Assembly: GCA_004321885.1 (NCBI GenBank)
Contig: SCQK01000002.1
Coordinates: 1 to 52,343, forward strand
Origin: Patescibacteria group bacterium
GTDB lineage: Bacteria > Patescibacteriota > Patescibacteriia > Magasanikbacterales > GWA2-37-8
DNA: 52,343 nt
Direction of reading: 5' to 3'
The position numbers were made by a program, and so were the translations under genes. A model generated the notes under the pieces. That model saw only the letters and a list, made by a program, of their open reading frames with translations, ran no database searches and was not told the origin of the DNA. Shown here one piece after another: positions 9,337 to 52,177 of the stretch. The first letter of the stretch is position 1. The number at the start of each line of letters is the position of its first letter.

Positions 9337-10218
9337 TTATAATTTATTTATGCCTTCCTCTAAACCAATCGTCGGCTCCCAGCCCAGCAACTCCCGGGCG
9401 CGGCTGTTATCTGCTTCTATAAACCGCATTTCACCGGGCCTGGGAGGCAAATTCACAGTTGGCCAGCCTATCAATTCGGCTATTTCATTAACGCTGGTTT
9501 GCTTGCCTGAACCTATATTAATAGCTGCTCCATCCCTAACATCAGATTTCCAGGCCGCGATATTCGCTTCAACCACATCGGACACATACACATAATCACG
9601 GGTGGCCCGGCCATCGCCAACTACCGTCAATTTTTCACCTTCCTTTTTCTGGCGCAAGAAAATTGGGATCACCATCGGATAAGATCCGGTCGCCAATTTA
9701 CGCGGGCCAAACACGTTGAAATACCTTAGACTCACCGTGGCCAGCCGGAATAAATTATGAAATAACCGGCAATATTGCTCCCCAATGTACTTGTGTAATC
9801 CATACGGGCTCACCGGGCGCGGAACAAAGTCCTCTTTTATCGGTAGTGGCTGTTCGCCGTAGAGAGCGCAGGTGGAAGAGAAAATCACTTTCTTTACCCC
9901 GGCTTCTTTGGCCGCCTGCAAAACATTCAGCGTGCCCGTAACATTTATCTCATGCGTGGAAATCGGATCTTCTATGGAAACTTGCAAACGGGGATCGGCC
10001 GCTAAGTGAAAAACGGCTTCGGCTCCTTTGAAGAGCGGCTTCAATTTATTAAAATCCCTGATGTCGACTTTTTTAAACTCGGCTTTTTTATTAACGTATT
10101 CTTTTTTCCCGAGCATCAAATTATCAATCACCCTTACTTCGTGACCTTCGGAAATTAACCTGTCGGTTAGATGTGAGCCGATAAAGCCGGCGCCGCCGGT
10201 AACAATGTATTTTGACAT
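9337..10218 (-). CDS. NAD-dependent nucleotide-sugar epimerase/dehydratase (SDR; UDP-sugar 4-epimerase or UDP-glucuronate decarboxylase-like)
   Basis: 293 aa with a Rossmann motif (TGGAGFIGSHL) and a YxxxK active site (YGLHKY). It lies immediately downstream of ugd. Confidence 0.7.
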   Translation of the reverse strand: MSKYIVTGGAGFIGSHLTDRLISEGHEVRVIDNLMLGKKEYVNKKAEFKKVDIRDFNKLKPLFKGAEAVFHLAADPRLQVSIEDPISTHEINVTGTLNVLQAAKEAGVKKVIFSSTCALYGEQPLPIKEDFVPRPVSPYGLHKYIGEQYCRLFHNLFRLATVSLRYFNVFGPRKLATGSYPMVIPIFLRQKKEGEKLTVVGDGRATRDYVYVSDVVEANIAAWKSDVRDGAAINIGSGKQTSVNEIAELIGWPTVNLPPRPGEMRFIEADNSRARELLGWEPTIGLEEGINKL

Positions 10219-10225
10219 AAAAAAT

Positions 10226-11617
10226 TTATATCGCCTTAAAAAATGGACTGCCCACCGCGATTATATTAAATCCGGCCCTCTGCAAATCGTCATAACGGTT
10301 TTGCAACAGGCGCCGGCCGTCCATAATGAGCGGGTGTTTTTTTTGCGCCAGCAGATAATCGGCCAAACCGTGAAACACGGGCCAATCAGTAGCTATAATC
10401 AGCGCCTCGGCCCTGCCAACAGCCGCCAATTCGCTAGACGCATAGATTGCCTTGGGCTCTCTGGGATAAAGCGACTGAAAATTCGGCATCGCGGCCGGGT
10501 CGTAAAGAAAAAATTTTTTTACTTTGCTCCGCAAAAATTTAATTATCTCCGCGGCCGGCGAATGGCGCGCGTCATTAGTGTCTCTCTTGAAAGCCAAACC
10601 CAAAATCGCCACGCTCTTGCCCTGCCAATTAAAACCGGCTTCTTTTTCCGCGCGCGCTAAAAAAATTTTGAGCTGTCTTTTGTTCGCTTTGTCCACACTG
10701 TCTATCAGAGCAGTATTTTGCCCGGCCGCGCGCAACTGATGCGCCAGGGAGCGCGAATCTTTGATAAAACAACTGCCCCCGCAATACAGGCTGTTGTAAA
10801 AACCCCAGTCGCCCGCACCCAGCCTTTGATCGCCGGTCAGAATCTTTTTTAGATTTTCAAATTTTATGTCGGAAAAACTTTCGCTCACCCGGCCGGCCGC
10901 GTCAAAACACTGCATCAACTTGTTGTATAAATAATAATTGGCCAACAATTTACCCGCGGCCGCTTCTTTGGGATTCACCTCTATATATTGCACCGAAGCC
11001 GAATCGTAAAATCTTTGATAAACTTTTCTCATTATCTTGAAATCTCGCTCATGCCACGCTCCTATCACCACGCGCGAAGGCTTTAATGAGTCGCCGACGG
11101 CCTTGCCCGCGACCAAAAACTCGGGATTGCCCGCGACTCCAAAATTGACCGCGCCGGCTTTGGCAAAAATTTTTACAGTCGCATCCGCCGCCGCTATGGG
11201 CACGGTGCTTTTAATGACCACGACAATATATTTTGACTGTCGGCCGCGGTTTCGCCGCGCCATGGCTTGGGCCAGCTTTTCAACCGCGGCGTTAAAAAAA
11301 CACAGGTCGCTTTCACCGCTTTCACCCAGCTCGGGCGTGGGCAGACACAAAAAAATCGCGTCGCACTTGTCCAGAAAATGTCTCACCGCGCCATAATCAG
11401 CCGTAAAGGCTATTCTATCTTTATTGCGCGTCAAAATATCGGCCAGGCCTTTTTCAAAAAGGCGCGCCTCAATTTTTGCGTGGTCACCAGAACTCAACAT
11501 CCCTATTTTTTTTTCGTCGGTATCGTAAACCAGCACATCATGCCCGCTGTCGGCCGTAACAGCCGCGGAACAAGCGCCCACATAGCCGGCCCCGATATAC
11601 AGTATCCGCATAGACAT
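10226..11617 (-). CDS. ugd: UDP-glucose 6-dehydrogenase / nucleotide-sugar dehydrogenase
   Basis: 463 aa with N-terminal MRILYIGAGYVG, a central catalytic-Cys region and a C-terminal UDP-binding domain typical of the UDPG/GDP-mannose dehydrogenase family. Confidence 0.85.
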   Translation of the reverse strand: MSMRILYIGAGYVGACSAAVTADSGHDVLVYDTDEKKIGMLSSGDHAKIEARLFEKGLADILTRNKDRIAFTADYGAVRHFLDKCDAIFLCLPTPELGESGESDLCFFNAAVEKLAQAMARRNRGRQSKYIVVVIKSTVPIAAADATVKIFAKAGAVNFGVAGNPEFLVAGKAVGDSLKPSRVVIGAWHERDFKIMRKVYQRFYDSASVQYIEVNPKEAAAGKLLANYYLYNKLMQCFDAAGRVSESFSDIKFENLKKILTGDQRLGAGDWGFYNSLYCGGSCFIKDSRSLAHQLRAAGQNTALIDSVDKANKRQLKIFLARAEKEAGFNWQGKSVAILGLAFKRDTNDARHSPAAEIIKFLRSKVKKFFLYDPAAMPNFQSLYPREPKAIYASSELAAVGRAEALIIATDWPVFHGLADYLLAQKKHPLIMDGRRLLQNRYDDLQRAGFNIIAVGSPFFKAI

Positions 11618-11685
11618 TGAATTACTCTCCTTAATCTGCTAACATTAACTCAAATCGTATCACATAATAAAGGCAAAAACAAGGT

Positions 11686-12795
11686 ATGACGCAACCAAAA
11701 ATCCTGATAGTTATAACCAAAGCCGACATCGGCGGAGCCCAAATAGCGGCTCTGCATCTGGCCAAAGGGCTGAAAGCCAAGGGCCTGGCCGTCACCGCGG
11801 CCATCGGCGAGGGCTCTTTTTTGGCGGGCGAACTTAACCAAGCGAATATTCCGATAACGTTTATCAAAAACTTGAAGCGCAGTTTTAACCCCCTTAAAGC
11901 AATTTTTTCTTTTTTTGAATTTAAAAAAATCTTTGACAAAAACGTTTTTGACATTGCCCAGCTCAACAGCTCAAACTCGCTTTTGGCCGCGTTGGCGGCC
12001 AGGCTGGCCAAAAACAAGCCCAGGGTCGTGTTCACCTGGCACGGTTTGTCTTATCTGGACCCGGGCGCAAAAAAAAATTGGCTGATAAAAAAATTCTTTT
12101 CATTGGCTTTCAAAATTCTTCTGCATTTTGTTGATGAAAACGTCTTCGTTTGTCAAACCAACTTGGACCAGGTCAAAAAAACCAAGCTGGTAAAAACCGG
12201 CACAGTGATAAAAAACGGGGTAAAAATAGACGCCTTGGGAACAAAACAGGCGCGAGAATTTTTGGCCAACAAATTGAAAACGAATTTGAGCGGCCAGTTG
12301 CTCGTCGGTTCCATTGGCCGTCTATCCGAGCCGAAAAATTACGAATATTTTATAGAAGAGATGGCCGAGGTCAGAAAAATTCTGCCCGCAGCGGTTGGCG
12401 TCATCATCGGCGAAGGGCCCGAGCGCGCCAAATATGAAAATTTAATCAAAAAACTGGACTTGGCCAAAAATTTTTTTCTGGCCGGCGAAATCGCCCACGC
12501 CAGCCGCTATCTCCCGGCCTTTGATTTATTCATTCTCACTTCTTTGTACGAGGGCTCGTCCATCACTTTGGCCGAGGCCATGGCCTGCGGCGTGCCCATT
12601 GCCGCCAGCGCCACCGGCGGCACGCCCGAAACCGTGAGTGGCAAAGGGCAAATTTTTCCATTGCAAAAAGGGCGGCTCGCTCAAATTATCATGGCCGCAG
12701 CCAAACAGCCCAAACAAGAAAAAATGCCGGCGCAAGCCGACACCACTGTTGCCATGACTCTCGGGTATTTGAAGCTATTCAATCTTTCATCCTAA
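11686..12795 (+). CDS. Glycosyltransferase family 4 (GT-B, retaining)
   Basis: 369 aa with a C-terminal EX7E-type motif region (FILTSLYEGSSITLAEAMACGVPIAAS). Confidence 0.75.
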   Translation: MTQPKILIVITKADIGGAQIAALHLAKGLKAKGLAVTAAIGEGSFLAGELNQANIPITFIKNLKRSFNPLKAIFSFFEFKKIFDKNVFDIAQLNSSNSLLAALAARLAKNKPRVVFTWHGLSYLDPGAKKNWLIKKFFSLAFKILLHFVDENVFVCQTNLDQVKKTKLVKTGTVIKNGVKIDALGTKQAREFLANKLKTNLSGQLLVGSIGRLSEPKNYEYFIEEMAEVRKILPAAVGVIIGEGPERAKYENLIKKLDLAKNFFLAGEIAHASRYLPAFDLFILTSLYEGSSITLAEAMACGVPIAASATGGTPETVSGKGQIFPLQKGRLAQIIMAAAKQPKQEKMPAQADTTVAMTLGYLKLFNLSS

Positions 12796-13561
12796 AAAGA
12801 CTCGCTAAAAAGGCTTGCGCGCATCTTAAAATCCATTTCAAGCAGGCCATAAAAAAATTCGGGTACTGTCTTCTAAACCTGATAACCAGCTTAAAACTAT
12901 TTACTACTTGTTTTCTATTTTTTACGGCCGTTACGCCGCGCGGATTTAGCCGATATTTCAAGCCAAAAAAAGGCAGGTTCTTAAATTTATAAAACTGCCC
13001 GAGGCGCAGCCAAAGGCCGTAATCCTCAACATATTTTTCTTTCTCATCATACAGGCCGCATTTAACGGCGGCTTCTTTTTCCATCATTATTCCGGAATGC
13101 AAAAATTGATTTTTAATCAGTATTTTTTTTCTGATATCTCCGTCATTTTCGCTAAATTCAATTTTGCCGGCCGCCTCGCCCTTTTCGCTTGTCAACAACG
13201 CTTTTACCCCAACCAAGCCGTAATCCGGGTTATTGGCCAAAAATTCCGCCTGCTTTTTTATTTTATCATGGTCCAGCCATTCATCATCGCTGTCAATTCT
13301 GGCCAAAAACAAACCGCGCGCTTGTCTTACCCCATGGTTCAGCGCTCCCGCCAGACCGATGTGGTTTGAAAAATTAATTATTTTAATCCGCTTGTCAATT
13401 AAAGAAAATTTATCGGCTATTTCCAACGACCCGTCTGTTGAACCGTCGTTCAAAATTAAAATTTCCAAATCTTGATACGACTGGCTTAAAACGCTTTGGA
13501 TGCTTTTTTCTAAATAAGCTTCGCCGTTATAGACCGGCAAAAGCACGGTAACCGTCGGCAT
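12779..13561 (-). CDS. Glycosyltransferase family 2
   Basis: 260 aa with a GT-A N-terminus (VTVLLPVYNGEAYLEKSIQSVLSQ...LILNDGSTDGS) and DxD/DSDD motifs. Confidence 0.8.
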   Translation of the reverse strand: MPTVTVLLPVYNGEAYLEKSIQSVLSQSYQDLEILILNDGSTDGSLEIADKFSLIDKRIKIINFSNHIGLAGALNHGVRQARGLFLARIDSDDEWLDHDKIKKQAEFLANNPDYGLVGVKALLTSEKGEAAGKIEFSENDGDIRKKILIKNQFLHSGIMMEKEAAVKCGLYDEKEKYVEDYGLWLRLGQFYKFKNLPFFGLKYRLNPRGVTAVKNRKQVVNSFKLVIRFRRQYPNFFMACLKWILRCAQAFLASLFRMKD

Positions 13562-13565
13562 GCAA

Positions 13566-14426
13566 TTATATTTTTATCCACTCCGAAGGCAGTAAATCCC
13601 CGGCATCAATATCAGCGGCGACCAGCCAGCGGCCGGGCGCCACCACGATTTTTTTCTCATTCTGATTCAGCCAAGCCGCCCACCAGCTAAAAGTGCTGTT
13701 GGCGATTATTTGATGTTTGCACAAACTCATCAGCGCCAGCTCCTCGGCCGCTCTTAGCGATGGCCGGGAAACAAAAACCATCGGCTCATCAAATTTCAAA
13801 CTATCCTTGGCCCAGGCGATGTCATCCGAGAACACGAAAATTTTAAGCGGCGCGTATTTTTTCCTGACCTCGGCCAGCCCTTTTTGGTAATAATTTACAT
13901 CGCATAAGCCGTTCCAGTCCAAGCAGGAAGCGGCGTAATCGCCGCGGCGAATATGAACGGCGACCGCATTGGGCGTCTGCTCAATTTCTCTTGCCAGCGC
14001 CTGCGCTTCGCCGGAATATTCCCGCAAAACAAAATCAGCTAATAAAATGCCTCTGATAGAATCAAAATATTTATAACTCTGAAAATAACCGCTTAAAAAA
14101 ACGGCTTTTTTCTTTTTGAGCAGGCGCGAATTGAAGCGATAAAAATAATTTCTGTTCCAGCGGCCCCTTATTTTTTTCGCGAATTGATTAAGGCGAGCCA
14201 ACAGGCCGTTGCCCTGGGCCTTTTTTATTTCTTCAACGGTCGCTTTGTTCAAGTTCACCTTAAATCCGTCAATTTCCAAATCTCTCGGCGTCTCTCCGAT
14301 CCGGCTATGGCCAAACCACGACAGGTCAAATTTCAGCGGAGCGCCCCAATCCAAAGACAGGCGCCGGCCCAAGGCGTATTGAAACATCTGATTGCCCAGT
14401 CCGGCGCTTAGCCGCATTATTATCAT
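13566..14426 (-). CDS. Glycosyltransferase family 11 (alpha-1,2-fucosyltransferase-like)
   Basis: 286 aa with the hallmark GT11 motif I (GLGNQMFQYA) and the motif HIRRGDY. Confidence 0.75.
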   Translation of the reverse strand: MIIMRLSAGLGNQMFQYALGRRLSLDWGAPLKFDLSWFGHSRIGETPRDLEIDGFKVNLNKATVEEIKKAQGNGLLARLNQFAKKIRGRWNRNYFYRFNSRLLKKKKAVFLSGYFQSYKYFDSIRGILLADFVLREYSGEAQALAREIEQTPNAVAVHIRRGDYAASCLDWNGLCDVNYYQKGLAEVRKKYAPLKIFVFSDDIAWAKDSLKFDEPMVFVSRPSLRAAEELALMSLCKHQIIANSTFSWWAAWLNQNEKKIVVAPGRWLVAADIDAGDLLPSEWIKI

Positions 14427-14875
14427 GTCAGCAAATTATTTTTCCGCAAAAATTTGGCGTGAATGGGAATGGTTTTTTTCGGCAGTTTCTTAAAAAAATC
14501 AAACCGTGGCGCCTGGCCCCGGCCGGCCGGAAGCAAATTCTTCGGCCTGACCAAAAAAACCATACTGACCGTGTGTCTTTTTTTACCGGCCTGAACCTCG
14601 CGCAAAAATTCCATAAAGCCCAACAGCTTCACCGGTTCCACCGCCAAACCGGTTTCCTCTCGCGCGATTCTCTGGAGCGCCCGGCTGATTGTCTCGCGCC
14701 ACCTTAGCCGGCCGCCGGGCAAATGCCACTGATTTTTGTACGGCTCGATGGCGCGCCAAGTCAAAAGAACGCCGCGCTGATTTTTGACAACCAAATCAAC
14801 GCAAACCCGCGGCGCGCGGCTGTAAATAAAATTATAATCCTTGTCACTTAGCCAAGACTGTTTCCGCTTGTTCAT
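14423..14875 (-). CDS. Nudix hydrolase, GDP-mannose mannosyl hydrolase (Gmm/NudD)-like
   Basis: 150 aa with a modified Nudix box (HLPGGRLRWRETISRALQRIAREETGL) resembling the Gmm variant GGRxxxxETxxxAxxRxxxxELG. Confidence 0.65.
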   Translation of the reverse strand: MNKRKQSWLSDKDYNFIYSRAPRVCVDLVVKNQRGVLLTWRAIEPYKNQWHLPGGRLRWRETISRALQRIAREETGLAVEPVKLLGFMEFLREVQAGKKRHTVSMVFLVRPKNLLPAGRGQAPRFDFFKKLPKKTIPIHAKFLRKNNLLT

Positions 14876-17018
14876 ACTTATTTTTTTTGGCCGCCTCCAC
14901 CTGGGCCGCCACCCACTCGTACATTTTGGCCATGCCCTCGCGCAGGGACAGAGACGGAGCCCAGCCGAGCTTTTCCCGTATCAATTTATTGTCGGAATTG
15001 CGGCCGCGCACCCCCTCGGGCCCCGGGATATTTTTAATGGTTAATTTTTTTCCGGAAAAATCAATCACCATTTGCGTCAATCCGTTTATGGAAACCATTT
15101 CTTCAGACCCGATATTGAGCGGCCCGCCAAAATCAGAATCCATAAATCGGCGCACCCCCTCTAGGCAGTCGTCTATATAAAGAAAAGAGCGGGTCTGTTT
15201 GCCGTCGCCCCAAATCTCCACCACCCCGCCATCGGCAGCCTCGGCCACTTTGCGGCAAATGGCGGCCGGCGCTTTATCGCGCCCGCCTGTCCAGGCGGTT
15301 TCCGGCCCAAAGACATTGTGAAAACGGGCCACGCGCACCGGCAAACCATAATTGCGATTGTTGGCAAAATACAGCCGCTCGCTGAACAATTTTTCCCAGC
15401 CATAATCGCTGTCTGGCAGGGCCGGGTAAGCCGACTCTTCGGCGCAATTCGGGTTGGCCGGGTCCTGCTGATTAAAGCGCGGATAAATGCAGGCCGAAGA
15501 CGAATAAAAAATCTTTTTCGCGCCGGTTTTAGGCGCGAAATGCGCCATATTCAAATTTATCTGGGCCGAATTATGCATGACATCGGCGTCGTGTTCGCCC
15601 GTAAAAATATAGCCAGCTCCGCCCATATCAGCGGCCAACTGGTACACCTCGTCAAAATCCGCGGCCAAGACTTTTTGACACACCGCCGGGTCGCGCAAAT
15701 CGCCGAGCACAAATTCATCGGCCGCGGTCTGGCTGAACTCCGGATATTTCAAATCCACCCCGCGCACCCAAAAACCCTCGCCCTTTAATTTCTTCACCAG
15801 ATGACTGCCGATAAAACCGCCGGCCCCGCAAACCAAGGCTTTTTTGTTTGGCATAAATTTAATAGTTAAGTTTTTCGCGTAAAACTTTTTTACGATAAAA
15901 TTTTTTAATTTGATAGGCCAGTCCTTGTCCATGCACGGCTTTTCAAAAATCAGGTAGAAAATGCCGGTGATTAGTAAAATCGGAAGCGTCAGCAGTAGTA
16001 TCTGCAAAATGATATTAACCGCGTAACTGCTGGTTAAGCTCCAAAAAACAGTGGCATTGCCAAAGCCGGAGATGACGACCGTATGCGTCAGATACATAGA
16101 GTAGCACATCCCACCGATGCCGGCAATAATCTTGTTGCCCAGTATTTTCTTGAGCAAATCATCGGTCAAAAACAGATAAACCAAAAGAAATAACGACGTT
16201 AAAAAAATACTCTTGCCGATAAAATTATCAACGTCAATAAACACCAAAACGACAAAAGCCAGCCCGCTGGCGGCCAGCGCCAGTTTGAACGGAATCTTGG
16301 GCGCTGGTTCAGACACGTAAAAGTCGGCTATTAAAAATCCGATTAAAAAATAAAAAAGATAATTATAAAGCCAGATAAAGCCGATCTTGAAGTATAAATT
16401 CAAAAACGGAATCAAAAATATCAGAATAATGAGCAGGGGCCGCCTGATTTGTTTGCCCAGGCGAAAGACCTGGGCCAAAAGCGGGGCCACCAGATAAAAT
16501 TGCACCTCAATTTCCAATGTCCAGAGCAAAACCCCGAGCATGGAAAAGCCGGCCACCGGAATAACATTATGAAGATAGAAAAAATTTAAAATCAAGCCGG
16601 GCCACAACTCGGAAAAAGTATGCTCGCCTTTGATAAGATAAAGCAGAAAAAAAATAATCAGGGCCGCGAAATACGGCGGCTCCAGTCTGGTCAGGCGCCG
16701 TAGATAATATTTTCTTAAAACCGGCTTTTTCGCCGAGGCCAAAAAATGCTTGGCGAACGGCAGGGCCAGAATAAAACCGCTAAGCACGAAAAAAATCTGC
16801 ACGCCCTTGAATCCGTTTTTCAAAAAAATATCCAAAAGGCTGTTGACCGTATCATATTTCACGGGCGACTTGGTGAGGAAAAAATTGTTGATATGATAAA
16901 AAGTGACGATGGCGATGGCGATGAAGCGCACGCCGTCAACTTCCGGAATATAAAAATGCGACGTGGTGGTTCGCCTCAATCTGTCAAATAATTTATTCAA
17001 CGCAACGCGTCCATTCAT
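14844..17018 (-). CDS. Fusion: N-terminal acyltransferase-3 (OafA/NolL-like membrane O-acyltransferase) plus C-terminal NAD-dependent sugar epimerase (GDP-mannose-3,5-epimerase/CDP-sugar epimerase-like SDR)
   Basis: 724 aa single ORF. Residues 1-390 are polytopic with an acyltransferase-3 signature (VDGVRFIAIAIVTFYHI...). Residues 393 onward begin MPNKKALVCGAGGFIGSHL, with YxxxK (YGWEK) and a full SDR epimerase fold. An internal ATG at 15852 could make this two genes, but no stop separates the domains. Confidence 0.6.
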   Translation of the reverse strand: MNGRVALNKLFDRLRRTTTSHFYIPEVDGVRFIAIAIVTFYHINNFFLTKSPVKYDTVNSLLDIFLKNGFKGVQIFFVLSGFILALPFAKHFLASAKKPVLRKYYLRRLTRLEPPYFAALIIFFLLYLIKGEHTFSELWPGLILNFFYLHNVIPVAGFSMLGVLLWTLEIEVQFYLVAPLLAQVFRLGKQIRRPLLIILIFLIPFLNLYFKIGFIWLYNYLFYFLIGFLIADFYVSEPAPKIPFKLALAASGLAFVVLVFIDVDNFIGKSIFLTSLFLLVYLFLTDDLLKKILGNKIIAGIGGMCYSMYLTHTVVISGFGNATVFWSLTSSYAVNIILQILLLTLPILLITGIFYLIFEKPCMDKDWPIKLKNFIVKKFYAKNLTIKFMPNKKALVCGAGGFIGSHLVKKLKGEGFWVRGVDLKYPEFSQTAADEFVLGDLRDPAVCQKVLAADFDEVYQLAADMGGAGYIFTGEHDADVMHNSAQINLNMAHFAPKTGAKKIFYSSSACIYPRFNQQDPANPNCAEESAYPALPDSDYGWEKLFSERLYFANNRNYGLPVRVARFHNVFGPETAWTGGRDKAPAAICRKVAEAADGGVVEIWGDGKQTRSFLYIDDCLEGVRRFMDSDFGGPLNIGSEEMVSINGLTQMVIDFSGKKLTIKNIPGPEGVRGRNSDNKLIREKLGWAPSLSLREGMAKMYEWVAAQVEAAKKNKYEQAETVLAK

Positions 17019-18010: not shown

Positions 18011-18011
18011 A

Positions 18012-43565: not shown

Positions 43566-43597
43566 AAAGAACAACGCGCCGCCCACTCGCGGGGATT

Positions 43598-44320: not shown

Positions 44321-44344
44321 TTCTTCTCTCCGTGATAGAGTAGG

Positions 44345-45168: not shown

Positions 45169-45171
45169 AAG

Positions 45172-45194
45172 CCTCCCCCTTGTCAAGGGGGAGG
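45172..45194. repeat. Intergenic copy of the CTCCCCCTT-GTCA-AGGGGGAG palindromic element
   Basis: cctcccccttgtcaagggggagg. It is related to the in-frame elements at 7237 and 8212. Confidence 0.6.
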
Positions 45195-45197
45195 AAT

Positions 45198-45653: not shown

Positions 45654-45690
45654 ACGATACCAGTATACATTTTTTTATTTAAAAAAACAA

Positions 45691-46734
45691 TCAACGCGCG
45701 CGAACCATAATAACAATGGCAAAAAAAAGAAAAATTACGGCGGCAATCATCCGCGCGCGGGGCTTGCCGCCAATGCCTTTCCATTCTCCGGAAATAAAGC
45801 CGGCGCCCTGGCCGCCCAAGATCTGCATGGCCTGGGCAATACCCACTCCCACCGAAGCCCCGACCGCTCCCAAAGCCACCATGCCCAGACCCTGCAAAGC
45901 AAAAGCGACAATCAGTTGCGAACCTATCAGAAGAGCCAGCGCGGCCTCGGATTTTTTTTGAAAAAAAACCGACCAAGACCTTTTTCTTATGATCAGCCAA
46001 ACCGGATAGGCCAAATTTATCACGGCGCCGCCGACAAATCCGCCGGCCCAGACGCCAAAATTGGCGGATATAACTCCGGCGCCCTGGGCTTTCATGGCCG
46101 CGATAATCGGCCCCTGGCTGTAGACAAAAGCCAGCGACGGACCCACTGAAAGCGCTCCGGCGATGATGGCCATTACCAGTCCGCCGCGAAAACTACCCGC
46201 TGGCGCGCAGACAACCGTTGGATATTTTTCAGACCGCTGATTTGCGATTTTTTCCCGGCCAAAGCCGGCCAACGCCGCCAAAAACACGCCGCCCAGCATT
46301 ATCGCCACGCCCGAAAGCACGGTTAGCCCGGCCAGAGAAAAAATATCCGGGGAATTTTCAAATAATCCGGTGCCTTTGAAAATCATGGGCAATATCACGG
46401 CCAGAGAAGCGCCCACGCCCGTCAGTATGGCGCCGGTCAAAGACAAACCAATGCGCTCGGCACAGCGGCCGGCCAGTACATTGGCCACTCCCCAGCCCAC
46501 CGCGAAAAGATTGGAAATAATTAGAGGCTTCCAGCCGACCGCGGCATAAGCGGCCCACGGATTGCCCACCCCGGCCAGCACCACTACCCATGGGATAATA
46601 AAAAGCGGCAACATACCGATAAACCAGTAGTGCTCAAACTTGTACTGGCGCATTTTTTTCATCGGCCACAAGGCGCTGCCGGTGCCCAGGCCGGCGATGG
46701 CGGAAAGCGCGACTCCTGAAAATATGGAAGACAT
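45691..46734 (-). CDS. DMT-superfamily sugar:proton symporter (RhaT-like)
   Basis: 347 aa with 10 TM helices and an RhaT-like repeat organisation. Confidence 0.5.
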   Translation of the reverse strand: MSSIFSGVALSAIAGLGTGSALWPMKKMRQYKFEHYWFIGMLPLFIIPWVVVLAGVGNPWAAYAAVGWKPLIISNLFAVGWGVANVLAGRCAERIGLSLTGAILTGVGASLAVILPMIFKGTGLFENSPDIFSLAGLTVLSGVAIMLGGVFLAALAGFGREKIANQRSEKYPTVVCAPAGSFRGGLVMAIIAGALSVGPSLAFVYSQGPIIAAMKAQGAGVISANFGVWAGGFVGGAVINLAYPVWLIIRKRSWSVFFQKKSEAALALLIGSQLIVAFALQGLGMVALGAVGASVGVGIAQAMQILGGQGAGFISGEWKGIGGKPRARMIAAVIFLFFAIVIMVRAR

Positions 46735-46817
46735 AAGTGTATTAAAGAATATCGTAAAACGGCCATTACCGGCTGATTGGCGGAATAATAATGACGATAG
46801 GGGCGGCCCTCATCGTG

Positions 46818-48542
46818 CTAAGCAGAAGATGAATTTACATATGGTATTTCCGCGTACAGGCCGGCGGACCATTTCTCGGGCATTTTTTGATCGGGATCAA
46901 TCATCAGCTCGCAGACAATCGGCCCGTCAAAATCCATAACTTTTTTTACCTTGTCCAACTCGCTGTCATTGTTAATCCGCTCAAAGGCAATGCCCCAGGC
47001 CGGAATTAGTTTGCTGAAATCCGGAATGCTCACTCCTGTCTCTGGGTCTGAAGCAAAAATCTTTTTAAAGAAATGCGTGTGCGTGGCCCGGATGGAATAA
47101 TAGCCATTGTTGTTGACAATAAAAATTTTAAGCGGCAGTTTGTGATGAACCACGGTTTGCAATTCCTGTAAATTCATCATTATGGAACCGTCGCCTTCAC
47201 TGCAGATGACGGCCTGGCGGCCACGCGCGATGCTGGCGCCAATGGCCATGGGCAGGCCCGAACCCATATGACCCAAACCGGCGTTGGTGAGAAACCGCTG
47301 GCCGCGGGAAACTTTAAGCGCCTGGTGAGGGGTAAGCGAAGCCATGCCATTGGCCGTGGTGATATCCAAACCTGGATTCCGGCTCCCGGGCCGGAATGAC
47401 ATGTTGCATGCGCCTATCTCGCGCCAAAATTTGTAGACATTCAAATATTTCGGGTCGCAGGCCAAATCAGCGGGATTGAGCGGCTCCACTTTCACGTCCC
47501 AGCGATTGAGGGTGATGTCTTGTTTGTATAATTCATCTAAAAATACTTTGGCATCGCAATGCACAGCCAAATCCACGGATAATTGTTTACGTTTCATTTC
47601 ATTGTCATCAATATCAACCATTATTTTTTTTGCGTTCGGCGCGAATTTATTGTAGTCCCATGAAACTTGCGTGAGTTGCATACGCTCGCCCACGATAAGC
47701 AGAAGGTCGCAGTTGTCTGCCGCGTAATTGGCGGCTTTGTTACCCGGCATTCCCTGCCTGCCCAAATAATAGGGATAGTCGTAAGTGACTAAATCATCAG
47801 CCGTAAAAATTGGCGTAACCGCGTTGATTTTAAATTTATCCAAAGACTTCCACAAAATTTCTTCGCCCCCGGCCAGACGTATGCCATTGCCGGCGATGAG
47901 CAGGGGGCGTTTGGCTTCGCGTAAAAGTGTGACGATTTTTTCCATTGTCGCGCGCTCCAGCGAACCTGGATTCCAGCTCTCGGGCTGGAATGATAAAAGT
48001 GTGTCCGGGTCAATTTCCGCGGCCTGCACGTCCAAAGGAATTTCCACAAACACCGGGCCGGGCCGGCCGTGGGTAGCTAAATACAGGGCTTTTTCCAGAT
48101 GATAGCGAATTTCATTTTCATTTTCCACGGTTACGGCGTACTTGCAAACCGGCTTGGCAATATCAATGACGTTTAATTCCTGAAAGCCGATGGCGCGCAC
48201 TACTGGTTGTCCGTTGGCATCGCGAGGCGTGATGTCCGCTCGCTTCACTTGTCCGGCAACAACAAACATCGGGATACTGTCCAGCCAGGCCCCGGCCATG
48301 CCGGTTACCGCGTTGGTGCCGCCCGGGCCCGTGGTTACCAGAGCGACCCCCGGAGAATTTTTTATCCTGCCATAGCCCTCGGCCGCGATGGCCACTGCCT
48401 GCTCGTGATGACAACAGTAAGATTTGAGGTTTGACCGGCCCAGTGAATCCACCAGGTGCATAATGCCGCCGCCCGAAACCAAAAAGACCGAGTCAGCCAC
48501 TTTTTGTTCAATAAATTGCCAGACGTAGTCGGATAGTTTCAT
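46818..48542 (-). CDS. Thiamine-diphosphate-dependent enzyme of the acetolactate-synthase/YerE family
   Basis: 574 aa with three ThDP-enzyme domains: an N-terminal Pyr domain (VFLVSGGGIMHL...GPGGTNAVTGMAGAW), a central domain, and a C-terminal PP domain with GDGS...NN ThDP-binding motif (GDGSIMMNLQEL...NNNGY). Confidence 0.75.
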   Translation of the reverse strand: MKLSDYVWQFIEQKVADSVFLVSGGGIMHLVDSLGRSNLKSYCCHHEQAVAIAAEGYGRIKNSPGVALVTTGPGGTNAVTGMAGAWLDSIPMFVVAGQVKRADITPRDANGQPVVRAIGFQELNVIDIAKPVCKYAVTVENENEIRYHLEKALYLATHGRPGPVFVEIPLDVQAAEIDPDTLLSFQPESWNPGSLERATMEKIVTLLREAKRPLLIAGNGIRLAGGEEILWKSLDKFKINAVTPIFTADDLVTYDYPYYLGRQGMPGNKAANYAADNCDLLLIVGERMQLTQVSWDYNKFAPNAKKIMVDIDDNEMKRKQLSVDLAVHCDAKVFLDELYKQDITLNRWDVKVEPLNPADLACDPKYLNVYKFWREIGACNMSFRPGSRNPGLDITTANGMASLTPHQALKVSRGQRFLTNAGLGHMGSGLPMAIGASIARGRQAVICSEGDGSIMMNLQELQTVVHHKLPLKIFIVNNNGYYSIRATHTHFFKKIFASDPETGVSIPDFSKLIPAWGIAFERINNDSELDKVKKVMDFDGPIVCELMIDPDQKMPEKWSAGLYAEIPYVNSSSA

Positions 48543-48545
48543 ACA

Positions 48546-49460
48546 CTAGAAAATAAGAAATTCAATCGCTTTATATACGCGGTCAACTGGTGATAACTCG
48601 GCATCCAACAATATATACGGCGGCTGATCCGGATTTTGTTTTTGGCCGGCAAACTCGTCAGAATTGGTAAAGCTGTAGGGGAAGCTCAACAGGCCTTCAT
48701 CATTGCCGAGCGGCATATCCCCAAAAGTGGCCACTTCATCTTCTTTAAAACCCAGTATCTTCAGCACGGTTTTAATGGCCACGGTCTTGCTGTCTTCATG
48801 CAGTTTTTTTGTCATGTGCACATAGGTATCATCGCCGGCGGCCGCGGTGAGCTCATTGCCCAATTCGGCGTTAAGCTCAGCCACCAGCTGGGCATGAATT
48901 GTTTTGTCTTTGGGCAAAACAAAAGTTACCTTGGCCTGCTCGGTGAAAAATTCCCCGTCAGCCGGGCGGCAGACGTCAATCATTTCAGCCGGCACATAGC
49001 CCTCCCAGCTATCCAACAAAAATTTTCTAAATGTCTCAATGCCTTTCTCGGCCAAGTCAGCGCGAGTGATGCCCAGATTGGCGTAGACTTTTTTCCCGAT
49101 TTCCACCGCTTTCAAAATTTGCGGCATTTCCAGGCCGTGATTATATATCTCAATCAACTGGTCTTTTTTTACCTCGTACAATGTGGTGCTATTGCCCCCG
49201 GCCACAAAGCTGGGCACAGACACATTTTCTTTATTCAACAGCTCCTGCAAGGGCGGCACCAACACCTTGATGGCTGTGGCCGCGCGCGCGGAAATAAAAG
49301 CCACTGATTTGTTTTTCTTTAAAATTTTATCCACCAACTCAAAAACCTGGGGCTGTTTGTGCGTGGCATCGCCGAGCGTGCCATCGTAATCCAAGCCGAA
49401 CAATTTGATTTTTGTTTTTGCTTCCTCTAATTTGACCTGCGCGATTTCGGAGTGATTCAT
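48546..49460 (-). CDS. HAD-superfamily phosphatase (HAD-IIB, sugar-phosphate phosphatase-like)
   Basis: 304 aa with motif I DYDGTL and motif IV GDMPLGNDEG. Confidence 0.65.
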   Translation of the reverse strand: MNHSEIAQVKLEEAKTKIKLFGLDYDGTLGDATHKQPQVFELVDKILKKNKSVAFISARAATAIKVLVPPLQELLNKENVSVPSFVAGGNSTTLYEVKKDQLIEIYNHGLEMPQILKAVEIGKKVYANLGITRADLAEKGIETFRKFLLDSWEGYVPAEMIDVCRPADGEFFTEQAKVTFVLPKDKTIHAQLVAELNAELGNELTAAAGDDTYVHMTKKLHEDSKTVAIKTVLKILGFKEDEVATFGDMPLGNDEGLLSFPYSFTNSDEFAGQKQNPDQPPYILLDAELSPVDRVYKAIEFLIF

Positions 49461-49464
49461 AACT

Positions 49465-49585
49465 TTAGCTCAAGTAAGCGCCGTCTGGATGTGCTCGCAG
49501 CGGCTTGTGGCGCCCAGAGCGCCACGCCCGAGCCCTCGCGGGCGAGGAAAGCGAGAGCACATCAAGACGGCGCGAACGAGAAAAT
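49465..49585. ncRNA. GC-rich, highly structured intergenic element with nested inverted repeats (GCGCCGTCTGGATGTGCTCGC ... GCGAGAGCACATCAAGACGGCGC). It is a candidate structured RNA or REP-like element
   Basis: A long imperfect inverted repeat encloses two inner hairpins (TGGCGC-CCAGA-GCGCCA and GCCCTCGCGGGC). Its GC content is far above the flanking sequence, and no coding potential is apparent. Confidence 0.35.
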
Positions 49586-51144
49586 TAAAGTACCCAATAA
49601 GTTAAAATTGTTTTACGATTTTTGTTTTGCGCGATGCTTTCGTCGGCGTAGTAAGAATCATCCTTATAGTGAGTGGTGGAAATTTCTTCAAACACGCAGC
49701 CGTTTTTGGTGGAAAACCCGTGCGCTAAATCGCGCTCTATCGTCACAATATCGCCGGGCCCGCTTTCTTTGATGACGCCGTTTAGGTCAAAAATCGCGTC
49801 GCCCCACAAGATATGAAAGGTCTCTTCTTTTAATTTATGCGAGTGCACCGGGTGTTTTTGGCCGGGCAGAAGTACAATCAATTTTTTGCAATATTCGCGG
49901 TTGAAACAATTTATCAGGCTGGCGCCGTATTCGTAGAATTTTTCTATGCCATAATGATGCGACAGCTCAAATTCCCACTTGTTTGATACCGGGATATTGG
50001 CGTTTTTGAGCAGCTGGTTGATTTGGGAAATGGCGGTATAAACCTGCTCGCGCAATTCCAGACAATTTACGTCCGCGGCCATGATGGGCTCGTTTTTCTT
50101 GAAGTCGCGGCTGGCCGTAAACACCGTGTATTTGGACAGGTCGTTGGCCAAAACCTGCCCGGCCATGTTGGGAAACGCGAAAAAAGAATTTTTGATGTCC
50201 ACGCGCTCGCCCGGCCTGATATCGCCGGCCGCGAACACTCCGCGCTGAAACTGGCGGATGTCGGCCAGCTCCTGGGGCGCGAAATCATGGCGCCTCCCGG
50301 AAACGCCGCAAGCGCGAAACGCCTCGGCCGCGGCTTCCAGCCATTTTTGTACCTGGTCTGGCGTGGCTGAATAGCCGTTTACGGAATACTTTTCGCTTTT
50401 AGCCGAGACATGCTTTTCAAAAGTGCCGGCGCCTTTGGCCACGGCCAGCTTTACCGCGTCAAAATTGTCGGCGTGTTCGTGGGTGGAAAAACCAATGGTT
50501 ATTTCCGGGTACCGCTCGCGCAACAAAGTAATCTGATTGAATTGCAGCTGCTCGTGGGGGGTGGGATACTGCCCGATGCAGTGCTCCAGCGCGAATTTTT
50601 TATTGCGGTTGATGAAAAAACTCACCACGCGGTCAATTTTTTCCAAAGCCGCGCCGCCGGTGGAGGCGATAATCGGCTTATCGGTTTTGGCAATGGCCTC
50701 CAAAAGCGTCCAGTCGGTAAAAGAACAGCTGGCGACTTTAATAATATCATAGCCGTGGCGCGCCACATTTTCCACGGACTTTTCGTCAAAAGGCGTGCAC
50801 ATGGAAATGAAGCCCAGCTTGTCGGCCTCGCTCTTTAATATCAAAAATTCCTCGCCCGTCAACCGCGCCTCGGAAAATCTTTTGATATATTTCAAATCCA
50901 TCCGCTCTTTATAATCCGGATGGATAAAAGTGTCCAGGTCGCGATACTGGAACTTGAACGCGAACCGGAAACCCAAATCCGGAGCAATAAAATTTTTACA
51001 GACCTCGCCAATCTCCCTGATTATTTTCAAGCCAAACTCCACATCGCCCATGTGGTTGTTGGCCAGCTCAAAAATAAAAAGAGGCGCCGCCGTTCCTCCT
51101 CTTTGCGCGAAAATCGCGTCAATTTTTTCCGCCATAATATACAT
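49585..51144 (-). CDS. NeuB-family nonulosonate (sialic-acid-like) synthase fused to a C-terminal cupin domain
   Basis: 519 aa. Residues 1-350 carry a NeuB/SpsE PEP-condensing TIM barrel plus SAF domain. Residues 400-519 form a cupin fold (HSHKLKEETFHILWGDAIFDLNG...). The start overlaps the fcl stop as TAATG. Confidence 0.65.
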   Translation of the reverse strand: MYIMAEKIDAIFAQRGGTAAPLFIFELANNHMGDVEFGLKIIREIGEVCKNFIAPDLGFRFAFKFQYRDLDTFIHPDYKERMDLKYIKRFSEARLTGEEFLILKSEADKLGFISMCTPFDEKSVENVARHGYDIIKVASCSFTDWTLLEAIAKTDKPIIASTGGAALEKIDRVVSFFINRNKKFALEHCIGQYPTPHEQLQFNQITLLRERYPEITIGFSTHEHADNFDAVKLAVAKGAGTFEKHVSAKSEKYSVNGYSATPDQVQKWLEAAAEAFRACGVSGRRHDFAPQELADIRQFQRGVFAAGDIRPGERVDIKNSFFAFPNMAGQVLANDLSKYTVFTASRDFKKNEPIMAADVNCLELREQVYTAISQINQLLKNANIPVSNKWEFELSHHYGIEKFYEYGASLINCFNREYCKKLIVLLPGQKHPVHSHKLKEETFHILWGDAIFDLNGVIKESGPGDIVTIERDLAHGFSTKNGCVFEEISTTHYKDDSYYADESIAQNKNRKTILTYWVL

Positions 51145-52103
51145 TATTTTAAGTTACAATTTGATTGATACCAATCATAGGTCGTTTTGAGTCCTTGGTC
51201 AAGCTCTATTTTGTGCCGCCAGCCCAGGGCCCGGATGCGGGAAATATCCAGTGTCCTCCGGAAAACGCCGTCCGGCTTGGCCGGGTCCCATTCAATTTTT
51301 CCCTCATAGCCCGTAATTTTTTGAATCAGCTCGGCCAAATCCTTTATCGTGATATCCTGGCCCATGCCCAGATTCGCGAAAATTTCTCCCCGCTCGTTCT
51401 GTTCTTTGGTCGGATTAAAATGCTCCATTAAAAATATACAGCCGTCGGCCATATCGTCCGCGTGCAAAAATTCCCGCCAGGGCGCGCCCGTGCCCCAGAG
51501 CGTCACTTTTTTTTCTCCACTTGTTTTGGCCTCGTGAAATTTGCGCAGCAGGGCCGGAATCACGTGCGAATTTTGCAAATCAAAATTATCGCCGGGCCCG
51601 TACAAGTTGGCCGGCATCACCGCGATAAAATTAGCGCCGTATTGGCGGTTATAACTCTGGCACATTTTCAGCCCGGCAATTTTGGCGACAGCGTAAGGTT
51701 CGTTGGTCGGCTCCAGCGGCCCGGACAGCAGATATTCCTCTTTTATCGGCAACTGGCAAACCTTTGGGTAGATGCAGGCCGAACCCAAAAACAAAAGCTT
51801 CCTTACATTATATATATAGGAAGCGTGAATGACGTTGTTTTGTATGGCCAGATTATTATAAATAAAATCAGCCGGATAGGTGTTGTTGGCGCCGATGCCG
51901 CCCACCTTGGCCGCGGCCAAAAAAACGTATTCCGGTTTTTCAGCCGCAAAAAAATCATTGACCGCTTTTTGCTCGCGCAAATCCAATTCTTGATGGGTTT
52001 TTAACAAAAAATTGCCAAAGCCCTCGGCCCGCAAACGGCTAACCAAAGCCGAACCCACCAATCCGCGGTGTCCGGCAACATAAACTTTGGCATTTTTTTC
52101 CAT
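51144..52103 (-). CDS. fcl: GDP-L-fucose synthase (GDP-4-keto-6-deoxy-D-mannose 3,5-epimerase/4-reductase)
   Basis: Start trimmed to MEKNAKVYVAGHRGLVGSALVSRL (ATG at 52103), because the longer ORF runs through tRNA-Ala. Fcl-specific motifs include FLGSACIYPK. Confidence 0.85.
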   Translation of the reverse strand: MEKNAKVYVAGHRGLVGSALVSRLRAEGFGNFLLKTHQELDLREQKAVNDFFAAEKPEYVFLAAAKVGGIGANNTYPADFIYNNLAIQNNVIHASYIYNVRKLLFLGSACIYPKVCQLPIKEEYLLSGPLEPTNEPYAVAKIAGLKMCQSYNRQYGANFIAVMPANLYGPGDNFDLQNSHVIPALLRKFHEAKTSGEKKVTLWGTGAPWREFLHADDMADGCIFLMEHFNPTKEQNERGEIFANLGMGQDITIKDLAELIQKITGYEGKIEWDPAKPDGVFRRTLDISRIRALGWRHKIELDQGLKTTYDWYQSNCNLK

Positions 52104-52104
52104 G

Positions 52105-52177
52105 TGGACCTCAGGGGGATCGAACCCCTTACCTCTTCCGTGCCACGGAAGCGCTCTACCAAATGAGCTAGAGGCCC
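52105..52177 (-). tRNA. tRNA-Ala (anticodon GGC)
   Basis: Manual fold: acceptor GGGCCTC/GAGGTCC with a G3:U70 pair, D arm GCTC-ATTTGGTA-GAGC, anticodon stem CTTCC/GGAAG with loop GTGGCAC, T arm AGGGG-TTCGATC-CCCCT, and discriminator A. The G3:U70 pair is the alanine identity element. Confidence 0.8.

Follow-up and report, generated by a model that had tools for sequence, protein, structure and literature searches.

A 43-kb cell-surface glycan biosynthesis locus between tRNA-Ala(GGC) and ychF on a Patescibacteria contig

Gene clusters of the Wzx/Wzy type, which serve the synthesis of O-antigens and capsules (e.g. the rfb cluster of Salmonella enterica, with rfbF, rfbG, rfbH and rfbI), combine sugar-precursor genes, glycosyltransferases and a Wzx flippase in a co-directional array. 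Here we describe a region of about 43 kb that resembles them on contig SCQK01000002.1 (assembly GCA_004321885.1), which belongs to a Patescibacteria metagenome-assembled genome; the contig stems from a metagenome and, at its full length of 52,343 bp, is called the window in the following. With the O-antigen clusters the region shares its co-directional layout, the sugar genes, glycosyltransferases and Wzx, homologs of RfbF, RfbG and RfbH, the lower GC content and higher turnover of the transferase and flippase genes, and the anchoring by housekeeping genes. Unlike them it contains no recognised Wzy, Wzz, WaaL, initiating transferase or RfbI, it embeds a GtrA/GtrB/GT-C route and three radical S-adenosylmethionine (radical-SAM) enzymes, and it resides in a host of the Candidate Phyla Radiation (CPR); to our knowledge, CPR bacteria are not expected to make lipopolysaccharide.

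Other described systems resemble parts of the region. The YerE-type clusters for yersiniose, erwiniose, caryophyllose and gastriose join cytidine diphosphate (CDP)-sugar genes to genes for a thiamine diphosphate (ThDP)-dependent enzyme, an aldolase and a reductase, sometimes with a methyltransferase, and YerE-type enzymes attach alpha-keto-acid-derived acyl branches to CDP-4-keto-3,6-dideoxyglucose (PMC9306805). The window likewise carries predicted genes for CDP-4-keto-3,6-dideoxyglucose and a ThDP carboligase together with short-chain dehydrogenases/reductases (SDRs) and SAM methyltransferases; in contrast to the YerE-type clusters it has no class-II or citrate-lyase-type aldolase, a role that a NeuB-cupin fusion and a HAD phosphatase occupy by position only, and it adds a B12-binding and two SPASM radical-SAM enzymes. 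The GtrABC systems of enterobacterial phages, ArnC/ArnT and the Pgf system of Streptococcus mutans place a glycosyltransferase of family 2 (GT2) with C-terminal transmembrane (TM) segments, GtrA and a polytopic GT-C side by side, as the window does; here, however, the set flanks RfbH in an order conserved across CPR loci, and the GT-C is diverged (26% identity). Like the Lewis-antigen synthesis of Helicobacter pylori, the region employs GT10 and GT11 enzymes, namely one GT10 (with FucT_N) and two GT11, so that alpha-1,3- and alpha-1,2-fucosylated epitopes are predicted, but the contig holds no Gmd. Finally, the tRNA-associated or 'flexible' glycan islands of environmental genomes lie, like this region, 3' of a tRNA gene, are absent in relatives and carry surface-glycan cargo of heterogeneous composition; the window differs from these in the absence of an integrase, direct repeats and mobility genes, and in cargo genes many of which are native to the lineage.

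We annotated the window with Pfam and NCBIfam profiles, comparison to the PDB and TM prediction, and functions were inferred from domain content. The interval between a tRNA-Ser pair and tRNA-Ala comprises 42 genes across 42,767 bp (coding density 97.7%, no unassigned gap above ~200 nt). Only two of these genes, at 11686-12795 and 42657-43448, are on the plus strand, and all other features mentioned below are on the minus strand unless stated otherwise. All open reading frames (ORFs) between the tRNAs with a Pfam or NCBIfam match are glycan-pathway or plausibly associated genes, and the ~43-kb glycan locus that a first-pass annotation of the same DNA had proposed was borne out, with 42 sugar-related genes by Pfam/NCBIfam. 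The region is a cell-surface glycan biosynthesis locus of a kind already known, hypervariable and O-antigen-like, and its unusual part is the CPR host. The best YchF matches other than the window itself are at most 77% identical, and those that are named belong to Patescibacteria or Candidatus Magasanikbacteria; judged by these matches, the host is a relative of Magasanikbacteria among the uncultured Patescibacteria (CPR). In our literature search we found nothing specific on glycan islands of CPR or Magasanikbacteria. The explanation that accounts best for the whole, and that we consider likely, is that of a lineage-typical, cassette-variable CPR glycan locus that was placed in the junction between tRNA-Ala(GGC) and ychF without a recognisable site-specific recombinase.

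The borders of the locus were as described in the first-pass annotation: ARAGORN and Rfam confirmed the tRNA-Ser pair on the left, tRNA-Ser(cga) at 8917-9005 and tRNA-Ser(tga) at 9151-9238, and tRNA-Ala(GGC) on the right at 52104-52177 (Rfam 58.7 bits), and the Rfam scan of the window gave no RNA family beyond these three tRNAs. The ychF gene (7794-8915, by Pfam), whose ATG at 8915 adjoins tRNA-Ser(cga), was used as the anchor in the conserved flank; it is followed by a methyltransferase gene, pilMN-like genes, T2SSF, T2SSE and rpsF, with the same synteny in all the relatives compared. In these relatives tRNA-Ala stands where the window has the tRNA-Ser pair. The distance between tRNA-Ala and ychF is 6 nt in L044, about 15 nt in L001, 24 nt in L015, 138 nt in L002, 405 nt in L034, 1.05 kb in L037, 1.9 kb in L014 and 2.1 kb in L035, without any glycan genes in between in these eight out of eight relatives with available DNA, versus 43,188 nt in the window, and a ninth related locus, available without DNA, has the same gene order. 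The position of the locus is therefore not conserved, as emerged from the synteny comparison that had been advised as a check. The longer intervals in the relatives contain small unrelated ORFs, so the tRNA-Ala-ychF junction is a small variable slot. The tRNA-Ala of the window aligns with the one that precedes ychF in seven relatives (L044 was left out of this alignment). Upstream of it lies a promoter-like sequence, TTGACA-17-TAGTAT (52191-52219), read from the sequence and of putative function; TTGACA also occurs upstream of tRNA-Ala in L034, L035 and L037, and TTTACA in L001, within a few columns of the alignment and not in one register. In a neighbour-joining tree of YchF the window nests among the eight relatives, with L015 branching first, and the all-against-all identities (64-76%) show that the relatives are as far from one another as from the window. 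Read on this tree, tRNA-Ala next to ychF, as in the relatives, is the ancestral arrangement, and the separation of the two by 43 kb the derived one.

The tRNA genes lie very close to their neighbours. The 3' end of tRNA-Ala (52104) abuts the ATG (52103-52101) of an fcl-like gene, with the GAGG of the acceptor stem, which resembles a Shine-Dalgarno sequence, 5 nt upstream. On the other side, tRNA-Ser(cga) ends at 8917/8918 and the ATG of ychF is at 8915, while in L001, L015 and L044 tRNA-Ala lies 6-24 nt from the ychF ATG; this arrangement suggests that ychF is normally co-transcribed with a tRNA precursor and processed from it.

Glycan loci at other chromosomal sites were compared in L036 (a 778,751-bp contig), L038 and L040 (a 963-kb contig). 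On the L036 contig ychF is found at ~696 kb and the RfbH-containing glycan locus at 36-57 kb, i.e. ~650 kb apart in contig coordinates (~130 kb should the contig be a closed circle). Orthologs were retrieved for the precursor genes and several others (identity to the CPR orthologs between brackets): RfbH (70-77%), RfbG (62-77%), RfbF (67-71%), the GtrB-like GT2 (66-69%), GtrA (63%), the Fcl-like SDR (52-61%; L036, L038 and L040) and, specifically in L040, the upstream SPASM radical-SAM enzyme (60%), the NUDIX-like protein (69%), the ThDP enzyme (74%), the NeuB-cupin (70%, and 44% in another locus, L043) and the HAD protein (56%). The UDP-glucose 6-dehydrogenase (Ugd) and the epimerase have counterparts in L041 and L042 (62-63% and 51-52%, respectively), and the first gene of the main block, encoding an HTH_17 protein, has an 81-aa ortholog (68%) that immediately precedes ABC-transporter genes within glycan locus L038. 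The divergence of the precursor-gene orthologs (51-77% identity) is similar to that of YchF (64-76%). The gene order GT2-GtrA-RfbH-GT-C is the same in L040, and in L036 and L038 without a called GtrA; the GT-C is a positional counterpart only, with 26% identity (E 1e-6) between relatives. In the compared loci no orthologs were found for the GT2s (the GtrB-like one aside), GT10, GT11, GT-D, Wzx, a 667-aa protein, the B12-binding radical-SAM enzyme and the second SPASM radical-SAM enzyme, nor for the DUF268 methyltransferase and the metallo-beta-lactamase-fold protein. Some of the genes without orthologs show weak, family-level matches of 24-36% (for the SDR and one GT2 of the cassette at 22165-27431 just 24-30%). 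The order of the modules is shuffled among the window, L036, L038 and L040. By these sequence comparisons the logic is O-antigen-like: precursor modules are kept and transferase, flippase and membrane cassettes are swapped. The modular assembly from different sources that the first-pass annotation had put forward thus stands as far as modularity is concerned, and finds at most partial support where it implies foreign donors, since the precursor genes have CPR orthologs at 51-77% identity and their GC content at third codon positions (GC3) is shifted like that of YchF.

CPR bacteria have very small genomes and presumably live fixed to host cells, so that surface display is central to their biology; measured against such a genome, the ~43 kb given over to a single glycan locus amount to a large investment. 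The combination of kept precursors and swapped transferases would point to diversifying selection on the surface, e.g. through recognition by phages or hosts. Current understanding is not overturned by the locus, which extends a known locus type to a poorly known lineage.

The GC content varies along the locus: 0.474 at 9337-22150, 0.425 at 22165-34586, 0.483 at 34541-38350, 0.458 at 38338-43450 and 0.516 at 43473-52100, against 0.510 in the flank (1-8900). In 1-kb windows its standard deviation is 0.039 in the locus and 0.021 in the flank (expectation from binomial sampling 0.016), so the profile is not uniform and the GC mosaicism noted before is real. The block values given for it were roughly right, although 38-42% for 24-34 kb is slightly low (per-gene 0.385-0.456) and the 'about 50%' of two radical-SAM genes amounts to 0.477 and 0.504; a sub-block at 43.5-46.7 kb that the first-pass annotation did not mention has the highest GC content (0.53-0.59), above that of the flank (0.51). 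The GC skew is negative all along the window and does not switch at the locus borders. The mean GC3 is 0.52 in the genes without orthologs versus 0.58 in the conserved genes (Mann-Whitney p=0.008), and the stretch with the lowest GC content (22.2-27.4 kb) consists of non-conserved genes, one unassigned SDR excepted. The GC3 values of YchF (window 0.56, relatives 0.35-0.43), RfbH (0.53, relatives 0.39-0.45) and the ThDP enzyme (0.58, relatives 0.39) show that the precursor genes have moved toward the GC-richer host about as far as YchF has. In the genome of a relative the GC content drops as well, from 0.425 in the core to 0.370 in the glycan locus, with a doubled window-to-window standard deviation; because of this same dip, we consider the GC mosaic a property of the locus type and not proof of multiple donors. 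The exchangeable cassettes may have come in more recently from a background of lower GC, as would be in keeping with the GC content of 0.37-0.41 typical of CPR.

How the locus came to lie at this site can be read in several ways. The new DNA starts right at the 3' end of tRNA-Ala, at a site that is empty in the relatives or carries small variable cargo (0.4-2.1 kb), its composition is mosaic and it includes a gene of the excisionase family (HTH_17), all of which would be in line with an integrase-mediated island in the 3' end of tRNA-Ala(GGC), i.e. a foreign cluster from outside the lineage that has since lost its integrase. The idea that the flanking tRNAs are insertion sites of that type nevertheless found little support. 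Integrase, recombinase or transposase domains were not found by Pfam/NCBIfam in any ORF of this 97.7%-coding locus, in agreement with the earlier observation that such genes, and with them signs of recent mobility, are missing; the last 23 or 14 nt of tRNA-Ala occur once in the window, even with 2-3 mismatches allowed; no border or direct repeats were detected at the locus edges; the right-hand 'bracket' coincides with the end of the contig; and megablast against plasmid and phage collections gave no match. The HTH_17 gene was considered as a remnant of a mobile element and rejected as such: since the CPR glycan locus L038 contains a 68% identical ortholog, the gene belongs to the locus itself and probably encodes its regulator. 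Together with precursor genes whose divergence from the CPR orthologs matches that of YchF, and whose GC3 has shifted to a similar degree, this makes an integrase-mediated island improbable. We hold it for very improbable that the contig is a chimera of assembly or binning, joined at tRNA genes, with the locus and the ychF-pilus flank taken from different populations. Admittedly the contig is metagenomic, tRNA genes are conserved repeats prone to mis-joins, and the contig ends 166 nt past tRNA-Ala; a chimera at tRNA-Ser would however call for another genome with a tRNA-Ser-ychF junction, and the relatives all have tRNA-Ala there. In addition, the GC content of the flank (0.51) matches that of the right-hand third of the locus (0.516), and for flank genes and locus genes alike the closest relatives come from one lineage, with comparable identities.

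An intragenomic translocation or inversion, by which a native glycan locus and the tRNA-Ser pair moved between tRNA-Ala and ychF with nothing acquired, overlaps with the explanation that we prefer and is a possibility to be reckoned with, though not one that we expect to be correct. Homologous glycan loci indeed occur elsewhere in the chromosomes of relatives (as in the 778,751-bp contig, ~650 kb from ychF), and the right-hand part of the locus has a core-like GC content of 0.516. Moreover, in L041 the Ugd-epimerase pair ends the run of glycan genes with a convergent Bac_transf gene directly after it, and in L042, with three unrelated genes between Ugd and epimerase, Bac_transf comes after the epimerase; in the window the same pair is followed by two tRNA-Ser genes and ychF, and this replacement of Bac_transf at the matching locus end suggests a breakpoint. 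Against a mere rearrangement we note that no tRNA, and in particular no tRNA-Ser, was found around the glycan loci of the relatives in the 16-22 kb sampled, and that the low-GC transferase cassette has no orthologs. The composition could also be a matter of gene function only, with AT-rich, low-expression transferase and membrane genes in a single, vertically inherited unit: the relative shows the same dip (0.370 versus 0.425), the lowest GC content is found in membrane and transferase genes, and the peaks of AT skew coincide with polytopic membrane genes. We find this unlikely, as relatives share almost nothing of the transferase part but retain the precursor genes, the modules come in different orders in the window and the three compared loci, the locus is absent at this site in eight relatives, and the difference is seen at third codon positions, not just at the amino-acid level.

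Several observations weigh against our preferred explanation of a lineage-typical locus placed in the tRNA-Ala-ychF junction. The right border is close to the contig end, with tRNA-Ala 166 nt from it; the YchF tree is based on a single gene and has no support values; and with one contig, arrival by insertion and arrival by rearrangement, both possible, are not separable. The estimate that the locus makes up ~4-6% of the genome holds if the genome is sized like the 0.73-0.96 Mb contigs of the relatives, a size that comes from those relatives and not from the metagenome-assembled genome of the window. The pathway is also incomplete on the contig: an initiating phosphoglycosyl transferase (of the Bac_transf/WbaP or WecA/MraY type) is not among the 42 genes and may be encoded on another contig; neither a Wzy/Wzy_C polymerase nor an O-antigen ligase has a Pfam or NCBIfam match in the window, where Wzz was not found either; Gmd was not found on the contig with the same profiles; and the E3 reductase (RfbI/AscD) is lacking, as the window encodes no protein with Fer2, FAD_binding_6 or NAD_binding_1, and was likewise not found in the glycan loci L036, L038 and L040. 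Finally, RfbF, RfbG, RmlD and Fcl score below the curated NCBIfam cutoffs, with the RfbF and RfbG families being the best NCBIfam ones for the first two.

The most novel element of the locus is a probable acyl-branched, radical-SAM-modified dideoxy-sugar pathway, delivered by the GtrB/GtrA/GT-C route. The predicted precursors are: UDP-glucuronic acid, by Ugd (10226-11617; TIGR03026, 242 bits, cutoff 190) and a UDP-sugar epimerase-type SDR (9337-10218; Pfam); a GDP-fucose-type 6-deoxyhexose, by a GDP-L-fucose-synthase-like (Fcl-like) SDR (51144-52103; NCBIfam GDPFucSynFcl, 474 bits, cutoff 500) and a Gmm-like NUDIX protein (14423-14875; Pfam/NCBIfam); an RmlC/RmlD-type 6-deoxy-L-sugar, by an RmlC-like cupin (21692-22147; Pfam) and an RmlD-like reductase (20800-21744; TIGR01214, 193 bits, cutoff 224); and CDP-4-keto-3,6-dideoxyglucose, by an RfbF-like glucose-1-phosphate cytidylyltransferase (38338-39162; TIGR02623, 265 bits, cutoff 300), an RfbG-like CDP-glucose 4,6-dehydratase (37364-38350; TIGR02622, 195 bits, cutoff 278) and the CDP-6-deoxy-D-xylo-4-hexulose-3-dehydrase RfbH/E1 (28699-30009; NF011936, 690 bits, cutoff 423). 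The latter CDP sugar would be elaborated by the ThDP-dependent enzyme (46818-48542; Pfam TPP_enzyme N/M/C, with a GDGS..NNN ThDP motif). This enzyme has its best PDB match in 8rph (JanthE; 347 bits, versus 231 for acetolactate synthase), JanthE has been described as YerE-like (PMC12188165), and the window's enzyme is probably a YerE-like carboligase too. Its alpha-keto-acid donor would probably be made by two adjoining gene products: a NeuB/SpsE-like phosphoenolpyruvate-condensing synthase fused to a lyxose/mannose-isomerase-like cupin (49585-51144; Pfam NeuB and Cupin_2; PDB matches 3g8r, 358 bits, and 7nzo for the cupin part) and a HAD-IIB phosphatase-like protein (48546-49460; Pfam Hydrolase_3, NCBIfam HAD-SF-IIB). 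Pyruvate aldolases or citrate-lyase family proteins had no match in the window with Pfam, NCBIfam or the PDB; the NeuB-cupin and HAD genes are what adjoins the ThDP gene instead. That a NeuB-type synthase supplies the donor is something we infer, and it runs counter to the known systems, which use class-II aldolases. As YerF-like side-chain reductases the SDRs at 43598-44320, 31314-32360, 25646-26539 and 51144-52103 are candidates, none of them assignable by profile.

The NeuB-cupin gene adjoins the ThDP gene in the window (46818-51144), in L040 (2959-8152) and in L043 (2328-5699), always together with RfbF/G/H-type genes; the HAD phosphatase belongs to this group in the window and in L040. 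The pairing may represent a variant of the acyl-branched sugar scheme in which a NeuB-type synthase replaces the aldolase. An impression that the Fcl-like gene corresponds to an epimerase domain fused to the NeuB-cupin in L040 proved wrong, its L040 ortholog being a separate gene (17936-18892). Where L036 (2380-4152) and L040 (6479-8152) have the acetolactate-synthase-like ThDP enzyme, L038 carries a split transketolase (N and C halves; 6403-8182), which would take its place as a cassette for two-carbon transfer, the CDP-sugar context being the same.

The branched CDP sugar would then be modified by reductases, SAM methyltransferases and the three radical-SAM enzymes, i.e. the upstream SPASM enzyme (36204-37304), the B12-binding class B enzyme (34541-36262) and a SPASM/twitch enzyme (33525-34586), all recognised by Pfam and NCBIfam, next to a Methyltransf_23 SAM methyltransferase (32362-33522; Pfam) and an SDR epimerase/reductase (31314-32360; Pfam), which is 49% identical to a gene of L036. 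Among 1.8 billion cluster representatives, none is more than 47% identical to the B12-binding enzyme, and its sole named relative is cyanobacterial; the 650-aa B12-binding radical-SAM genes of L038 and L040 are not detectably its orthologs. L043 holds the nearest homolog of the window's enzyme that is situated on a long contig, with 45% identity (42% by local tblastn); this locus represents a different kind of organism (GC 0.31) and contains RfbF/G/H-like genes, NeuB-cupin, ThDP, NUDIX-like, Methyltransf_23, GT2, SPASM radical-SAM and B12-binding radical-SAM genes. The recurrence of the gene set in L043 suggests that the genes act on one sugar, and that a functional link joins the right-hand part of the locus (45-52 kb) to its middle part (27-39 kb).

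For export two routes are predicted. About ten cytoplasmic glycosyltransferases (GT2, GT4, two GT11, GT10 and GT-D) would assemble a polyprenyl-linked oligosaccharide, together with O-acetyl- and methyltransferases, for export by the Wzx-type flippase (40892-42259, ~11 TM; Pfam Polysacc_synt, 86 bits, cutoff 28, with a weak match to NCBIfam Wzx_EPS). By the second route the GtrB/PgfS/ArnC-like GT2 (30367-31305; two C-terminal TM segments; PgfS 177 bits, ArnC 110 bits), GtrA (29981-30370; Pfam) and the GT-C-type membrane glycosyltransferase (27413-28702, ~10 TM; Pfam GT87, 85 bits, cutoff 25) would load one sugar on polyprenyl phosphate and transfer it outside the membrane.

A joint reading, which we offer as tentative and would not bet on as it stands, is that the set recurring in the window, L040 and L043 (RfbF/G/H, YerE-like ThDP enzyme, NeuB-cupin, HAD, NUDIX, B12-binding and SPASM radical-SAM enzymes, methyltransferase and GtrB-like/GtrA/GT-C) makes one undescribed sugar, predicted to be a 3,6-dideoxyhexose that bears a long, C-methylated and polyhydroxylated acyl branch; a ulosonic acid made by NeuB would serve as the donor in place of an aldolase product, and delivery would proceed via polyprenyl phosphate to a wall-associated surface glycan or glycoprotein of the epibiotic CPR cell; separately, the same tentative reading takes the tRNA-Ala(GGC)-ychF junction for a recombinase-independent cargo slot in the lineage. 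The locus provides a starting point, open to experiment, for a new branch in the biosynthesis of acyl-branched and radical-SAM-modified deoxysugars.

The genes from 42498 down to 12779 are consecutive on the minus strand. This unidirectional block of ~30 kb has the extent and the overlapping or near-abutting genes that were ascribed to it, and contains 30 genes instead of 28. Among its 29 junctions, 15 are overlaps (seven of the 4-nt ATGA type), 10 measure 0-10 nt and the other four 12, 17, 26 and 59 nt. The best site in a promoter scan, TTGACA-18-TGgTATACT (42555-42584; 11/12 matches, extended -10), lies at the head of the block, ~50 nt ahead of the ATG (42498) of the first gene, which encodes the HTH_17 (excisionase/MerR-type) DNA-binding protein (42253-42498; Pfam HTH_17, TIGR01764 excise domain). 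This site (42584-42555) makes it unlikely that the ORF begins further upstream, at 42564; the length of the L038 ortholog (81 aa) fits the shorter form, and the start at 42498 chosen before was right. At the other end, a terminator-like hairpin with a T-run (12723-12744) is located ~35 nt past the last stop codon of the block; another terminator-like hairpin (9285-9308) comes after the epimerase gene. The block would probably be read mainly from the single promoter ahead of the HTH_17 gene and end at the terminator after 12779, and one long transcript is plausible. Two counts speak against so simple a picture: promoter-like sites occur within the block too (52 found versus 29 expected in 9-28 kb), and terminator-like sites are overall no commoner than in shuffled sequence. 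The leader of the HTH_17 gene (42500-42555) contains a perfect 8-bp hairpin, ATTCCTGC-ttgc-GCAGGAAT, whose 3' arm holds the only AGGA before the ATG at 42498; this hairpin may control translation or transcription of the block.

The remaining genes of the block are described here in transcription order. Wzx is followed by a DUF268/SAM methyltransferase (40071-40895; Pfam) and a GT11 alpha-1,2-fucosyltransferase-like protein (39175-40062; Pfam). Beyond the CDP-sugar, radical-SAM and GtrA/GT-C genes comes the cassette with the lowest GC content (22165-27431; GC 0.40-0.44, GC3 0.47-0.49), which encodes, by Pfam, a GT2, the SDR epimerase (25646-26539), a second GT2, an FkbM methyltransferase, a GT-D and a GT10 alpha-1,3-fucosyltransferase-like protein with FucT_N. 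Downstream of RmlC and RmlD we found a GT2 (20019-20798; Pfam), a 667-aa protein with ~11 predicted TM segments and a soluble C-terminus of ~170 aa (18012-20015), and a 331-aa soluble protein with a faint GT1-like match (17015-18010; E 0.005). For the 667-aa protein there was no match in Pfam (even at E=1), NCBIfam or the PDB, and it has no similarity to the Wzy_C-TPR protein of the relatives, of which it had been considered the counterpart. The 667-aa protein is a candidate polymerase or ligase and the 331-aa protein a candidate transferase; their AlphaFold2 single-sequence models were unusable (pLDDT 45 and 34). The block continues with a 724-aa fusion of an Acyl_transf_3 O-acyltransferase (~8 TM) and a C-terminal Fcl-like SDR (14844-17018; Pfam, NCBIfam), whereas the acyltransferase of L036 is a separate 381-aa gene, and after the Gmm-like NUDIX gene it closes with a GT11 (13566-14426) and a GT2 (12779-13561), both by Pfam/NCBIfam. 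A recent duplication of the two GT11 genes was dismissed: the proteins share just 36% identity, and the 'repeats' in the DNA correspond to conserved motifs. Convergent with the block is a GT4/GT1-family glycosyltransferase (11686-12795, plus strand; Pfam Glycos_transf_1 and Glyco_transf_4), which brings the glycosyltransferase set to six GT2, one GT4, two GT11 and one each of GT10, GT-D and GT-C.

To the right of the block, a metallo-beta-lactamase-fold protein (42657-43448, plus strand; Pfam Lactamase_B_2) is encoded divergently from it. It is followed by a FabG-like SDR (43598-44320; Pfam), a 216-aa protein of unknown function (44345-44995), a NUDIX-like protein (45198-45653; Pfam), 69% identical to one in L040, and a RhaT-like permease (45691-46734; Pfam, 10 TM by TM count), and these four genes occupy the sub-block of highest GC content; the gene tally lists two NUDIX-like proteins in this right-hand part. 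An ORF of 361 aa antisense to the radical-SAM genes, reported by the first-pass annotation, is present at 36234-37319 on the plus strand; it has no Pfam match and is therefore spurious, as are the other antisense ORFs.

The flank beyond ychF carries a type IV pilus/T2SS-like cluster (T2SSE, T2SSF, PilM, PilN-like, T2SSM-like and a small ORF) and then a UPF0020/N6_N4-type methyltransferase, together at 1220-7804, in an order that is strictly kept in all related CPR loci examined. On the opposite side of the junction, upstream of tRNA-Ala, the relatives always have a gene for a secreted-looking CarboxypepD_reg/SdrD_B-type repeat protein of 650-1120 aa, as found in L014 (4338-7709), L034 (1487-4564), L035 (5068-7767), L037 (3197-6397), L044 (6693-9812) and L001 (3418-5358). 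Giant LVIVD-repeat proteins are encoded ahead of it in L037 and L044, and a surface-protein neighbourhood is in this way conserved beside the pilus genes.

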